Below, one piece after another: positions 54-53,279 of a stretch of 64,000 nt of DNA. Made by a program: the position numbers and the translations under genes. Each line of letters starts with the position of its first letter. The first letter of the stretch is position 1. Under the pieces are notes generated by a model that was not told the origin of the DNA, ran no database searches, and saw nothing but the letters and a program-made list of their open reading frames with translations. Origin of the DNA: Chrysomallon squamiferum (taxonomy: Eukaryota > Animalia > Mollusca); NCBI GenBank assembly GCA_012295275.1, contig CM022669.1:4340001-4404000 (forward strand), written 5' to 3'.

Positions 54-3000
54 CTCCTTCGTCGTTGATACATTTGCCCATTCCTTTTGATCAGAAGAAA
101 TCAAGTAGTTACAGACGTTTTCAAATTGACCTAGAGAACCCTTCTCTTTGGCGTTGATTTCCAAGGCATATTCTGGATTATTTGACACGTTTTTGTCTGG
201 CATTGTCACAGTGACAATGACATTTGCACTGTTTTGCTCAACTTTAACAAACCCTTCAAGATTGTGTACAACCTTCGAGTAATGTTTAAGAAAAACCTGA
301 AATGCCAGTTCTTTGATGCTTTTGAACTGAAACTTCTTCACTGCGCCATAGTCCATGATAACAATACCATTTTTGACGGAAGGCTGAGTCAAACCTGCTT
401 CTGCAGCTTTCAAATTGTAGCCGAATCCTATTGCTGGATTTGATGGGAAAGGATTTGTGTTTCTACCCACTGAATCACAATCGAGCCTGAAGTTACACAA
501 GCCGTTGTTGAATTGCATCTTATAAATACCTCGTACAGGGAAGCGAATGATAAATGTTTTTATTTTGTCTTCGTTGTTCTGTAAAACGTACAAGTCTGCG
601 GGAATATCTTTTGGCAGTTTCTCTTCTGACATTTTTTCGTCAAACAACAACCTGTACGATAGTAGACATTCTGAAAGCATCTTAAAGCTGATCTTCACTC
701 TGCCTTCTTTAGATTTCATCACTCCAACATTTTCACTTTTAAGTCTTATGCCAGAAGAGAAATAAGATTCTGAAAGCATCGGAACTCGAACAAAATCATC
801 TTCAGTCCAAGGCGATGGTAACAGCTGCCATTCTTTCTCGGAAGCCACACACATATAAATAAATTCATCTGGATCGGTGAGAAAGTAAAATTCATCACAA
901 TCATAAAAATACATGACTTCTGATTTTTCTTGCTTTTGACTGGTACCTGTCGCTTGATCCTCTATTAAAGTCCATTGACCATCGACTACTGCTGTGAACG
1001 CCCAGAAAGGGTGGACAATCCTCCAGGAGTGATCTACATACACAGCATTCCAGGCAGAGTTGCGGTCACTGAGGTCTGTGTCACCAACTTCAAACCCTGC
1101 ACCCTTGCTTTTGCCTCTGATTATAACACACGGAATGTTGGCTGCCCTGTGAGAGAAAACTGCTGATGAACATTCAGACACACAATAAGATGGAGTGTTA
1201 GACAAATGGATAGACGGACGGACAGACACATAGCGAGAAAGACAGACAGGTAGACAGACAGACAGTCGGATAGATAGACAGACAGAGATATATAAACAGA
1301 AACACACAGAGAGACTGACAGAGATGTACAGACAGACATATGTATAAAGAGATAAATAGACACACAGTTAGGCAGATTTACGGACATGCAGACAGAGAGA
1401 GACAGACAGACTGATAGATAGACAGACAGACAGACATGCAGATAGATTAACGGACAGACAGGCAGACAGAGACAGAGATACTGGTAAATAGTTAGAAAGA
1501 CAGAGAGACATGCAGACAAACAGACAGATGGACAGACAGATATAAACAGACACAGAGAGACTGAAAAAGAGACAGATAGACAGACAGACAGGGAGAAAGA
1601 CAGACTAATATATAGAGACATAGGCACACAGTTAGATAAACGGACATGCAGACAGAGAGATATAAACAGACTGACAGAGAGACATTCAGACAGACAGGGA
1701 GACAGACAGGCTAACATATAGAGTCATAGGCACACAGTTAGATAAACGGACATGCAGACAGACACACAAATAGGTAGAGAGACAGACAGACAGTTAGACA
1801 GATTATAAACATATTTTCAGTAACCGACTGTTTACCCAGTATTTACTTGCTTATTTTAATATTAGTAATTAAATTATATTTCTGTATGATTTAAACAATT
1901 ACGATGCAGTACATACCTGCAAAGGAGGGCAAAGAATGATGGGTACGACCCTCTACGATTTTGTATTAGTTTCATGTAGCCTCTGGGTGTGTTTGGGTCT
2001 TTGACGCCAGAATACGTCATGTTGTAGATTCTTTGATTTCCCAGCCAAACGAAAATAGATCTAACTTTCTGAAGATCTGTCTTCAAATCTGAGGTGAGAT
2101 AGTTTACGAGTGACGTGTAAGTGGAGGCGTCATCTTGCGAAGCCTACAATAATAATAACAATAATAATTATAAGAAAAACAGTAACTATTATTATCACCA
2201 CTAAAGTAGCAACACGATAAAAACGATAATAATGATAAAAGCAACATACATACGCAATCATAATATATAAGTAAAGACATACGCTCACTCACATACATAC
2301 ACAAAACATACATACATACGCACACATATAAATACATGCATTACATTACATCACCTATACAGACACAAAAAACATACGTGTACTATGTAGGCAAATCCAT
2401 ATCTTATAAAGAAGATTCTTACTTGCTTTGCTTTGATTTCGATATCTCGATAATCATCTATTTTGAAAATTTCTTTCTTTCTGGTTCCTGGCGGTTTTGG
2501 AGGTGGATAACCCGGCTCTGTGTCTGCCACAAAAATCTGTTGAAAAGAAAACTACACACTCACTTTCGTCAAAGATAAATATAACTGATGAAGTGCTTGT
2601 AAATCGGCTGCAGTAAGATGTCACTGATATAGTGTTTGTAAAACGTGATACGAAATGTCACTGATACAGTGTATGTAAGATATGTCATATGAAATACTGT
2701 TGATATAGCATATGTAACAAATGTCCCTGACGTAGACTATGTAAGATATGTCACATGAAATACTACTGATATAGCATATGTAAGAAATGTCTTTAACATA
2801 CACTATGTAAGATATGTCATATGAAATACTACTGATATAGCATATGTAATAAATGTCTCTGACATAGACTATGTAAGATATGTCACATGAAATACTACTG
2901 ATATAGCATATGTAAGAAATGTCTTTAACATACACTATGTAAGATATGTCATATGAAATACTACTGATATAGCATATGTAATAAATGTCTCTGACATAGA

Positions 3001-3312
3001 CTATGTAAGATATGTCATATGAAATACTACTGATATAGCATATGTGACAAATGTCGCTGAAATAGACTACGTAAGACATCTTATATGAAATGCTATTGAT
3101 ATAGTATAGGTAACAAAGGTCACTGATATAGTATATGACATTAAACAGCAACTTGAAAGTACATGATGTGCTATTAAACCACATGCTCGTATGTTTTAAC
3201 TAAAATGAAAATAATAATAATAACTATAGCATCAAACAATGCTACTTACTCCATTTGTATCCTGGGTGACTTCCTTTACAACAGAAGTAGACTTGCTTCC
3301 TCCACATCCCAT
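54..3312 (-). CDS. Hillarin/KY-like transglutaminase-domain protein, paralog A (5' part; exons 5-8 lie beyond the window start)
   Basis: Exons with GT-AG ends and consistent phase: e1 3312-3250 (MGCGGSKSTSVVKEVTQDTNG), e2 2536-2423 (IFVADTEPGYPPPKPP...KAKQ), e3 2143-1917 (ASQDDAST...SFFALLCR), e4 1146-54 (AANIPCVIIRGKSKG...NSAWNAVYVDHSWRIVHP...YFLTDPDEFIY...EWQLL...NYLISSD). Exon 4 translated by hand with no stop. Motifs match hillarin (RNSWNAV, YFLTDPxEFIY, EWQLL). Confidence 0.85.
1190..1800. repeat. Degenerate (GACA)n/(GATA)n tract in intron 3 of A; also B 10990-11470, D 24250-24645, G 50685-50880
   Basis: Direct reading. It is the source of the LSVC-rich spurious ORFs. Confidence 0.85.
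2640..3140. repeat. 66-bp intronic minisatellite in intron 1 of A; related arrays in intron 1 of B (12320-12830), C (20870-21520), D (25400-25660), E (33720-33920), G (50270-50660)
   Basis: ACTATGTAAGATATGTCA recurs at ~2736, 2802, 2868, 2934 and 3000. It explains the repetitive ORF 2621-3184. Confidence 0.85.
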
Positions 3313-3835
3313 TTTCTGTTAGACTAAAATATAATTATTAAAATATTCTAAATCAGAACGAGTATGGCCCTGGGTATCACCAATCTGCAGACTGAATTGT
3401 TCTATGTCTGTATATGTATGTTTAGGTTTATATGTATGCGTATGTGCATGTGTATGTATGTGTGTTTGTGTGTGTATGTATGTGTGTGTGTATATGTTAT
3501 GGGTGTATTTGTGTGACTGTGTGTGTGTGTGATCTTATTATAATACTGTATCAATATTGTTACTGTTGCTATTGATACTACTATGAAAGTTACTACAATT
3601 AAAATGGTGGTGTTTCTACTATGATTCGTATTACTAAATAATAAAATGTATAAATAATAATACAGAACAATGTATATAATCACTACTCAACAAATAATAA
3701 TAATACAAAAAATGCAATTACTACAACTGCTATTAAATTTAACGGTACCATTACCACTAACAACAATAATAGTTCAGATGATAATTAAAGCAAAAGTACT
3801 ACTACTATTAATAAGTACAATAACAGCAAGAGCAA

Positions 3836-3911
3836 TAGTAATAATAATAATAATAATAATAATAATAATAATAATAATAATAATAATAATAATAATAATA
3901 ATAATAATAAT
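3836..3911. repeat. (AAT)n microsatellite in the putative 5'-UTR intron; also ~13530-13845, 22610-22865, 34640-34878, 52445-52755
   Basis: Direct reading. Confidence 0.9.
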
Positions 3912-51478: not shown

Positions 51479-51743
51479 ATTGAATCAGCATAAAGTGATG
51501 TTTTGAATGTGTAGGTAGTAAACTGAACCTAGACTCTTCTAATTAGCCACTTCGTTGACCAAATCCGGTTATTTTATATTTGTGTGTATATTGCCACCCC
51601 GTTTCTGTGTTTGTTATACATATTTTCACTGTGATACAAGCGATCTGTGATTGAAAGTTACTCCTAAATTAAAAATAATAAACAATTTTCTTGTTAATAT
51701 ATGCACACACTGTAGAATATTATACTTTTAAATGTGAAGTTAA

Positions 51744-51902
51744 TAGAGGCGTGGCGTTTGTTGCAAGACCCCGGAGCAGTGCAAGTGTACTACATCCTGT
51801 AACCCGTGGGAATGAGCAACCCGCGAACCTCTTCCACTAGTCCACAAGAGTACAAGAGTACCCAGGAAGTCTGCGCCCGGGACAACCCACGCTACTCCCC
51901 TC
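51744..51902. mobile_element. hAT-type MITE copy upstream of H
   Basis: TAGAGGCGTGGCGT...ACGCTACTCCCCTC flanked by GAAGTTAA / GAAGTTAG. Confidence 0.65.
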
Positions 51903-53081
51903 GAAGTTAGTAACTGAATGATGGAAACAATGGCTTAACGACAGCTAAACATAATTATTTTAATATTATGCAATCTATCCTTTTTTTTTGTAAATATTAT
52001 ATTTCATTATATTTGTTTTAATAAAGCATATACAGCCAGTTCCATCACTCCGTCAATTAATTTTTAAAAATGTATTTATATGTTTGCGTAGGCGACAGAA
52101 ACACAAAACATCTATTGACAAATGCTGTTAAAGATTATTACGCAACAACATTTGCATTTTAGATCCTTCAATGCTGTCTACTATGTATCAAATGGGCATA
52201 TTTGATCACGTGATCTTCTTCACAAAAGAATGAAAAACCGTTTTTCTTGGAATCAGCCTATCTTGACGATAGAACAGAAAGTCGTTCGAAGTCTGACTGA
52301 AAACACATTATTCAAGTGGTTGACGGTTAACAAGGAGCTGCTTCTCGATTTTATTTCAAAGTTAGACAAACTTCTATACACTTGGAGACAGTTTGTCTTA
52401 CAGTTACGTGCTGTAAATATTAAGTGTAAATTCAGGTTTGTGTATATTATTATTATTATTATTATTATTATTATTATTATTATTATTATTATTATTGTTT
52501 CAATTATTACTATTACTATTATTATTGTTATAATTAAAATTATTATTATTATTATTATTATTATTATTATTATTATTATTATTATTAATATTGCTGTTTC
52601 TATTGCTTTGCTGTTGTTGTTATTAATAGTGACAGTACTTTTACTATAATTATAATCTGGGTTATTACTGCTGTTAGTAGTAATGGTAGTGTTAATATTA
52701 ATAGTAGTTGTAATAACTGCAGTTTTTGTGTTATTATTATTATTATTATTATTATAAGTAGTGATGATATGCATTGTTGTGTATTATTATTTATACATTT
52801 TATTATTTAGCAATACGAGTAATTGATCTGTAATAATAGCAGTAGTAACATTAATAACACCGGAATTTTAACTGTAGTAACTTTCACAGTAGTAACAATA
52901 GGAACAGTAACAGTATTGATACAGTATTATAATAAGGTCACACACACTGACACACACCCACATACATATATATATATATAGATACACATACACATAAATA
53001 TACACATACACTGGTGATACCCACGGCCATACTTGTTCTAATTTAGAATATTTTAATAATTATATTTTAGTCTGACAGAAA

Positions 53082-53279
53082 ATGGCAGGTGGAGCAAGCA
53101 AGTCTACCCCTGTTGTGAACGAAGTCACCCCTGTTGTGAACGAAGTCACCCCTGTTGTGTACGATGTCACTTCTGTTGTGTACGAAGTCACCCCTGTTGT
53201 GAACGAAGTCACCCCTGTTGTGAACGAAGTCACCCCTGTTGTGAACGAAGTCACCCCTGTTGTGTACGATGTCACTTCT
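53082..53279 (+). pseudogene. Paralog H, exon-1 fragment cut by the satellite array (inverted twin of the 5' end of C)
   Basis: MAGGASKST followed by 8 copies of PVVNEVT-like repeats. It runs directly into the tandem array at ~53280 with no donor site. Upstream 51.6-53.1 kb mirrors 22.2-23.6 kb. Confidence 0.8.
53109..53279 (+). repeat. Coding 21-bp minisatellite (8 units; PVVNEVT) in exon 1 of H
   Basis: CCTGTTGTGAACGAAGTCACC repeated. Confidence 0.92.

Follow-up and report, generated by a model that had tools for sequence, protein, structure and literature searches.

The cluster and its product

The DNA analysed here is a stretch of 64,000 nt from Chrysomallon squamiferum (the window; 33% G+C, with many microsatellites). 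It carries a cluster of related genes whose product combines a predicted N-terminal acylation, a transglutaminase-like domain without catalytic triad, immunoglobulin (Ig) domains of the KY type, helical repeats and a C-terminal domain that, by sequence, is homologous to dynein's microtubule-binding domain (MTBD). The component parts are known; the finding is their fusion, an unannotated, motor-free MTBD on a pseudo-transglutaminase that is predicted to be acylated. A first-pass annotation of the window placed five ATGs on the minus and three on the plus strand, and all eight were recovered at the same positions and strands. We name the copies after these ATGs as A to E (minus strand) and F to H (plus strand; Table 1). 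The count of at least eight paralogs was nonetheless overstated, as five gene-sized copies and three fragments (D, G and H) are present. Exon mapping yields an architecture of eight exons with GT-AG introns, and B, C, E and F possess all eight. The reading frame is open in three of the eight copies, namely A (499 codons, as far as the window reaches), B (757 amino acids, aa) and C (851 aa), in line with the earlier impression that only three to four copies are intact; E and F are frameshifted.

The closest named homologue among the matches listed is a 'hillarin-like' protein of Gigantopelta aegis (P0002), with 64% identity over exon 4 against 45% for the next best. All coding exons of the window match P0002 in order, and the layout is equal except for one helical repeat fewer. 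Pfam recognizes Transglut_core plus two KY-type Ig domains (exon 4 of B to PF23265 in two stretches, E=4e-22). Seven of the eight copies start with MGCG[AG]SKS, which fits the pattern MGxxxS with a cysteine at residue 3, the exception being H, where the start reads MAGG and Gly2 is lost. Exon 1 of B corresponds to a putative acylation peptide of 28 aa. The same pattern is seen in the homologues (136 sequences, including isoforms and cluster members): of the 82 that start with MG, 80 carry Ser or Thr as residue 6, and a Cys lies within residues 3-6 in 43. Both the MGxxxS myristoylation motif and double acylation at Gly2/Cys3, also in ciliary proteins, are described in the portion of PMC6678300 that we consulted. 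Myristoylation of Gly2 and palmitoylation of Cys3 are predicted from this motif.

When frog KY (P0113) is used as anchor, the Cys-His-Asp triad is found to be replaced in A, B and C, the positions holding R/I, S and H. Among homologues with the C-terminal domain the Cys and the His are each present in 0/96 and the Asp in 23/96. Judging from these residues, the transglutaminase-like domain is likely inactive.

A dynein-type domain at the C-terminus

In dynein the MTBD forms the end of the motor, and its affinity is switched by the stalk. For the C-terminal third of the window proteins Pfam reported no domain, and exons 5, 6 and 7 taken singly gave nothing meaningful. Exons 6 and 7 show 62% and 70% identity to residues 622-716 and 718-778 of P0002. 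A profile of 13 family sequences retrieved dynein MTBDs (best E=2e-5), and a profile of 60 sequences matched the yeast dynein MTBD at E=1.1e-10. With the latter, 37 of the 39 PDB matches at E<=0.01 were dynein-sized or dynein-named chains over the C-terminal part; the other two were transglutaminase-like. Language-model features of the ESM Atlas ranked the PF12777 MT cluster at the top (score 0.90), and automatically made PF12777 labels occur on short mollusc fragments.

Structure comparison points in the same direction. The AlphaFold2 model of P0002 563-790 is all-helical, with a predicted local distance difference test (pLDDT) score of 96.7. Foldseek placed dynein entries in the top 14 rows listed, with a root-mean-square deviation (rmsd) of 2.3-4.7 A for chains consisting of the MTBD only; with the model of all 790 aa, the list was filled by Ig matches and the MTBD was missed. 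VIA-align scored entries of the dynein stalk and MTBD at Z 16.6, 16.5, 14.9, 14.2 and 12.0 against Z 8.4 for the best unrelated chain (mouse MTBD 3err_B: Z 16.5, rmsd 3.7 over 142; 6l4p_B: Z 14.2, rmsd 2.5 over 124). Furthermore, the glutamate of helix 1 is retained in 58 of the 60 members, and for the MTBD-like exons 6-7 of the window copies the net charge amounts to +12 to +14. On the profile evidence the C-terminus is homologous to dynein MTBDs, and it is predicted to adopt their fold. The first-pass annotation missed this domain. Neither an AAA+ motor ring nor a long stalk is present, the proteins of 757 and 851 aa being fully taken up by other domains.

Several points weigh against reading the window proteins as microtubule tethers with a dynein-type MTBD. 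P0002 alone reached dyneins in phmmer at E=0.07 and 0.56 only, Pfam MT detects just two of the 60 members at E<=0.01, and the best E-value of Foldseek is weak (5e-4). The structure model, moreover, is that of the Gigantopelta homologue and not of a window protein. At the position of the helix-6 arginine of yeast, which we equate with R3382 of PMC4230729 on the basis of spacing, Lys or Arg is present in 11 of the 60 members and Gln in the window copies; one place before it a basic residue occurs in 34/60. Across the family the domain is only modestly charged, with a median net value of +2 and a positive net value in 34/60, and the last helix of copy B is altered. Finally, an MTBD-like fold also occurs in 9fqr_Xl (Z 10.2), in 9ya2_L (Z 9.4) and in part of radial spoke protein 2.

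These last chains show the fold, whole or partial, in 9fqr_Xl 1333-1490 (sperm doublet), 9ya2_L 1207-1456 (Toxoplasma intraconoidal microtubule) and 7jrj_I 461-534 (radial spoke protein 2). Both 9fqr_Xl and 9ya2_L were absent from the dynein sequence matches. As structural matches they may represent motor-free precedents for the fold, so that other uses of it are possible. In the portions consulted of PMC11779644 and PMC13406575, neither chain 9fqr_Xl nor a motor-free dynein MTBD is named.

Comparison with known systems and range of the family

The window proteins share parts with several known systems. Vertebrate KY (frog P0113) likewise shows a transglutaminase-like core ahead of KY-type Ig domains (PF23265), but it keeps Cys, His and Asp and is without helical repeats and MTBD-like domain, whereas the opposite holds for the window proteins. 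The best solved match to the transglutaminase-like part is Chlamydomonas FAP246, a ciliary protein of the central apparatus (7n6g_6E, E=2e-17). The match is confined to profile positions 129-277, with nothing over the MTBD, and FAP246 still has both His and Asp. With dynein heavy chain (PF12777; PDB 6kio, 3err, 6l4p) the family shares the homologous MTBD sequence and the fold including two flanking helices. Dynein, however, has an AAA+ ring, a tail and a long coiled-coil stalk; these are lacking in the window family, which does not keep the helix-6 arginine position and carries the MTBD on helical repeats of a protein of 730-850 aa.

Hillarin and Ltd-1 carry an N-terminal LIM domain; we found no Pfam match to LIM or SH3 in exons 2-7 of B nor in the whole of P0002. 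The two-domain proteins P0062, P0072, P0086, P0105 and P0122, which we take to be hillarin-type, keep His and Asp and have no MTBD. The window proteins resemble hillarin, Ltd-1 and Cyk3 in missing the catalytic Cys (likely a cytoskeletal scaffold, according to the portion consulted of PMC3718969), but have a single transglutaminase-like domain and, in contrast to those two-domain proteins, have lost His and Asp too. Public proteins from molluscs, Lingula, Macrostomum and Branchiostoma named 'hillarin-like', 'ltd-1-like' or 'KY-like' belong to the same subfamily and have the same layout, the window copies being a younger private clade. Sequence and layout thus set the subfamily apart from hillarin, ltd-1 and KY proper, and 'hillarin-like' is an automatic homologue name only.

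A profile search yielded 724 clusters at E<=1e-30. With a profile built from the family itself, the C-terminal domain was found in 99 of 165 homologues examined, the named carriers being bivalves, gastropods, Lingula, Macrostomum and Branchiostoma. We checked the names of homologues for 30 of the 150 matches listed; neither these names nor the precomputed Pfam lists show an MTBD. The names omit it because Pfam MT finds so few of the members. In the amphioxus and Lingula members P0054, P0058, P0067 and P0078 extra Ig domains separate the dead enzyme from the MTBD-like domain, and therefore protein length varies widely.

The family had been described as normally single- or low-copy. This does not apply to the present subfamily: paralogues that are neighbours or lie on one scaffold are found in Lottia (157825/157826), Patella (SNE40_012616/012617), Batillaria (00011924/00011926) and Branchiostoma (CAH1267353/354), and Haliotis cracherodii has three on one sequence, Pomacea five on one contig, and Pecten and Argopecten two each. 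Repeated local expansion is therefore a habit of the subfamily. Records P0001, P0003 and P0018 (Lottia, Saccostrea and Pinctada) hold two or three gene units per protein and may be fused models of tandem copies. Two literature entries concern genes known here by the KY name only. In Supplementary Data 1 of PMC7142155, the part of that source consulted, an orthogroup 'Kyphoscoliosis peptidase' is listed as expanded: Chrysomallon has four copies, against 0-5 for each of 15 other genomes. RNA interference against a planarian 'kyphoscoliosis peptidase' is reported to give body lesions and 53% death (bioRxiv 10.1101/2020.09.11.293936, seen in part).

Divergence, history and selection

Over the first half of exon 4 the seven copies that have it differ by 5.7-13.7% across all 21 pairs. 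The remark of the first-pass annotation that introns and intergenic DNA are still alignable proved correct: introns and flanks align, and pairs of B, C, E and F show 8.6-10.4% difference in intron 7. The exception concerns the old exons 1-2 of F. Exon 2 of this copy is 25-28% from the other copies and its later exons only 2-10%, which makes F a chimera whose 5' end is old and whose body is young. The 63 sites that are informative among B, C, E and F form 34 runs along the gene versus 42.5 when shuffled (p=0.016); this clustering fits patchy gene conversion.

Pairwise estimates over exons 2-4 give 0.10-0.16 synonymous substitutions per site (dS) and a ratio of nonsynonymous to synonymous substitution (dN/dS) of 0.49-0.65, with eight of ten pairs below 1 at p<0.05. 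For the MTBD region dN/dS is 0.39-0.97 (six pairs, few sites), and the overall range is 0.35-0.97, so none exceeds 1. On these pairwise ratios the cluster is under relaxed purifying selection, without sign of positive selection. A quick tree of 46 rows, built on exon-4 regions, groups A, B and C in a single clade that excludes the Gigantopelta homologue, with a value of 100 in the Shimodaira-Hasegawa-like approximate likelihood ratio test (SH-aLRT); four Pomacea copies likewise form a clade of their own. Together with the dS values this bears out the earlier proposal of young, lineage-restricted gain and loss. Recent duplicates of a lineage-specific clade lie next to pseudogenes (three open and five broken copies), as in birth-and-death evolution. 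Unequal crossing-over, a single inversion and patchy gene conversion, with purifying selection relaxed, are the likely origin of the cluster, and the subfamily has expanded in this manner repeatedly in molluscs. It is an ordinary birth-and-death array, and its tandem expansion says little about adaptation.

Exon 4, or part of it, was found in nine of eleven listed sequencing runs (three studies, one organism); the contigs give neither copy number nor expression level. In contigs of RNA runs X8 and X9, and of X1, exon 4 is joined directly to exon 3 or exon 5. Run X1 is catalogued as 'DNA?' yet carries spliced joints, among them B-like joints of exons 3-4 and 4-5. RNA contigs comprise B-like, E-like and further spliced types, and the DNA runs show many variants per site. 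By their exon-4 variants the RNA contigs could not be assigned to window copies (best 12/19 and 12/16 sites), and therefore further copy types or alleles exist. One X9 contig represents an E-type transcript of exons 1-3, with no differences from copy E in exon 2 and one in exon 3. Its exon 4 has 48 letters where E has 37, hence no 11-nt deletion, and differs at 12 of 192 sites. A contig of low depth could also be chimeric; several of the exon-4 variants recur in DNA runs X3 and X5. The missing deletion and divergent exon 4 therefore point to copy types beyond the window, in other animals or elsewhere in the genome.

Proposed function and alternatives

We lean, at a little better than even confidence, towards a static membrane-to-microtubule tether without motor activity: a scaffold predicted to be N-acylated, with a likely inactive transglutaminase-like domain and a homologue of the dynein MTBD. 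The lipid anchor would hold the N-terminus at the membrane, and an acidic spacer that varies in length would come next. A body that binds partners might be formed by the dead enzyme and the Ig domains, with the helical repeats as spacer before the MTBD, which would grip the microtubule in a fixed state because there is no ring or long stalk to switch its affinity. An isolated dynein MTBD does co-sediment with microtubules, as stated in the portion consulted of PMC4230729. As to the site, our guess is that the protein most likely works in cilia or at the cortex of ciliated epithelia. Two observations hint at cilia, neither of which proves it: the occurrence of Gly2/Cys3 double acylation in ciliary proteins, and FAP246 as best solved N-terminal match. 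More tentatively, and with rather less than even confidence, it might be argued that the whole family, from flatworms and molluscs to amphioxus, took the dynein MTBD motor-free and, anchored by lipid, uses it to connect membrane and microtubules in a static way (for example ciliary membrane and axoneme), and that the repeated tandem expansions tune dose or spacer length.

If this is true, the behaviour of the domain in the absence of the stalk switch would become visible in a natural motor-free MTBD that is anchored to the membrane, and the family would be a candidate for poorly defined membrane-microtubule links in invertebrate cells. The annotation of a sizeable subfamily is corrected as well, since the domain is mentioned in none of the names examined. 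In the literature covered, mostly open-access and largely titles and abstract openings, we found no account of a fusion between transglutaminase-like and dynein MTBD sequences, nor of the mollusc expansion.

A different possibility is that the MTBD-like fold, though derived from dynein, now serves as a module for binding proteins in general. The protein would then scaffold actin, septin or Rho partners at the membrane, a role of the kind reported for hillarin, Ltd-1 and Cyk3, and would not bind microtubules. The helix-6 arginine position that is not kept and the low median charge of the family would fit such a role, as would the partial match of radial spoke protein 2 (Z 6.9; E=1.8) and the inactive transglutaminase-like relatives which, in the portion consulted of PMC3718969, work at cleavage furrows and bind Rho1. 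On the other hand, the whole domain is kept with both flanking helices from flatworm to amphioxus, the glutamate of helix 1 is nearly invariant and the window copies are strongly basic within the domain. We consider the general module unlikely, but it is the main rival of the tether. The first-pass annotation had instead read the expansion as a repurposing, specific to this lineage, for immunity, recognition or gametes, which would imply diversifying selection. This was not supported and seems improbable to us: no pairwise dN/dS exceeds 1 and most pairs over exons 2-4 are significantly below it, parallel clusters occur in many molluscs, the orthogroup table shows 0-5 copies in the other 15 genomes (PMC7142155, in part), and the N-terminus has an acylation motif rather than a signal peptide, within a cytosolic layout kept as in Gigantopelta apart from the one repeat. 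Such a switch would nonetheless agree with a young clade with dead copies, with a dN/dS of about 0.5 that we judge high for a cytoskeletal gene, and with the variable coding repeat in exon 1. It would also agree with two reports seen in part and linked to the family by name only: an abalone haemocyte transcript, 'kyphoscoliosis peptidase-like', that is down 48 h after Vibrio challenge (PMC11250055), and the expanded Chrysomallon orthogroup (PMC7142155).

That the copies are uncollapsed haplotypes or assembly errors is very improbable. Contigs from two DNA runs do not cover intron 3 of E (32769-32973), a gap that proves nothing, and the 11-nt deletion of E is bridged by no contig among the matches listed. 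Yet the exon-4 divergence holds for every pair, copies have private deletions, both orientations occur, the DNA runs contain many variants per site and the RNA contigs several spliced copy types. Because of this divergence and these spliced transcripts of several types, the copies are not haplotypes.

Features of the individual copies

Coordinates are collected in Table 1. In copy B a deletion in exon 8 takes out the usual stop and results in a new tail of 40 aa. Exon 1 of copy C is enlarged by a 21-bp repeat (20.7 units, 21780-22201), which recurs in copy H (8.3 units, 53100-53275). This repeat is coding, corresponds to 7 aa of acidic character and alters the spacer between lipid anchor and first domain. 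Copy D has a frameshift in exon 1, has lost the acceptor of exon 2, carries a stop in exon 2 and misses most of exon 3; its exon 4 is truncated by a deletion also found in G. The 11-nt deletion of E shifts the frame, with the first stop at codon 157. Copy F bears many frameshifts and stops: its exon 3 contains an insertion as well as a stop, and its exon 4 shows deletions of 23, 7, 26 and 1 nt.

Table 1. Features of the cluster in window coordinates.
Feature	Coordinates	Strand	ATG	Remarks
Copy A, exons 1-4	54..3312	-	3312	3312-3250, 2536-2423, 2143-1917, 1146-54; open, 499 codons; exons 5-8 would fall beyond the window
Copy B	5978..13162	-	13162	8 exons, open, 757 aa
Copy B, exons	13162-13079, 12213-12100, 11817-11591, 10934-9836, 9240-9087, 8444-8158, 7772-7587, 6100-5978	-		
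Dynein-MTBD-like domain, copy B	7587..8307	-		Second half of exon 6 and exon 7; same exons in C, E and F
Transglutaminase-like domain and two KY-type Ig domains, copy B	9836..11817	-		Enzyme-like part in exon 3 and the beginning of exon 4, Ig domains in the remainder of exon 4
Copy C	14910..22225	-	22225	8 exons, open, 851 aa
Copy C, exons	22225-21755, 20758-20645, 20362-20136, 19769-18671, 18106-17974, 17377-17091, 16610-16425, 14948-14910	-		
Copy D, pseudogene fragment	23655..25993	-	25993	Exon 1, exon 2, scrap of exon 3, half of exon 4
Copy E	28614..34268	-	34268	8 exons; 11-nt deletion early in exon 4
Copy F, chimeric pseudogene	39355..47418	+	39355	Old exons 1-2 (39355-39414, 40645-40758), young exons 3-8
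Copy G, fragment	49911..51477	+	49911	Comprises exon 1 and half of exon 4; sister of D in inverted orientation, identical deletion joint
Copy H	53082..53279	+	53082	5' flank and part of exon 1; truncated at the satellite, 53279
Inverted segmental duplicate, F(exons 3-8)-G-H	42620..53283	+		Reversed order of E-D-C(5' end), mostly 82-91% identity
Satellite	53279..64000	.		Unit ~620-655 bp; 16 units in direct orientation plus two partial ones, the second inverted; units 93-100% alike; cluster boundary

The satellite starts inside exon 1 of copy H, contains an internal repeat of ~99 bp and ends in the inverted partial unit from about 63560; a search against Rfam gave no match. Within intron 3 of copy E (32820-32850), a remnant of a C/F-type exon-4 acceptor lies upstream of the B-type acceptor and is, going by its sequence, a trace of recombination between copy types. 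Two TGACGTCA palindromes (37340 and 37358), a TATAAG and a splice-donor-like AG/GTAATT lie at 37340-37425, where copy F may have a cAMP-responsive promoter and a first exon that is non-coding.

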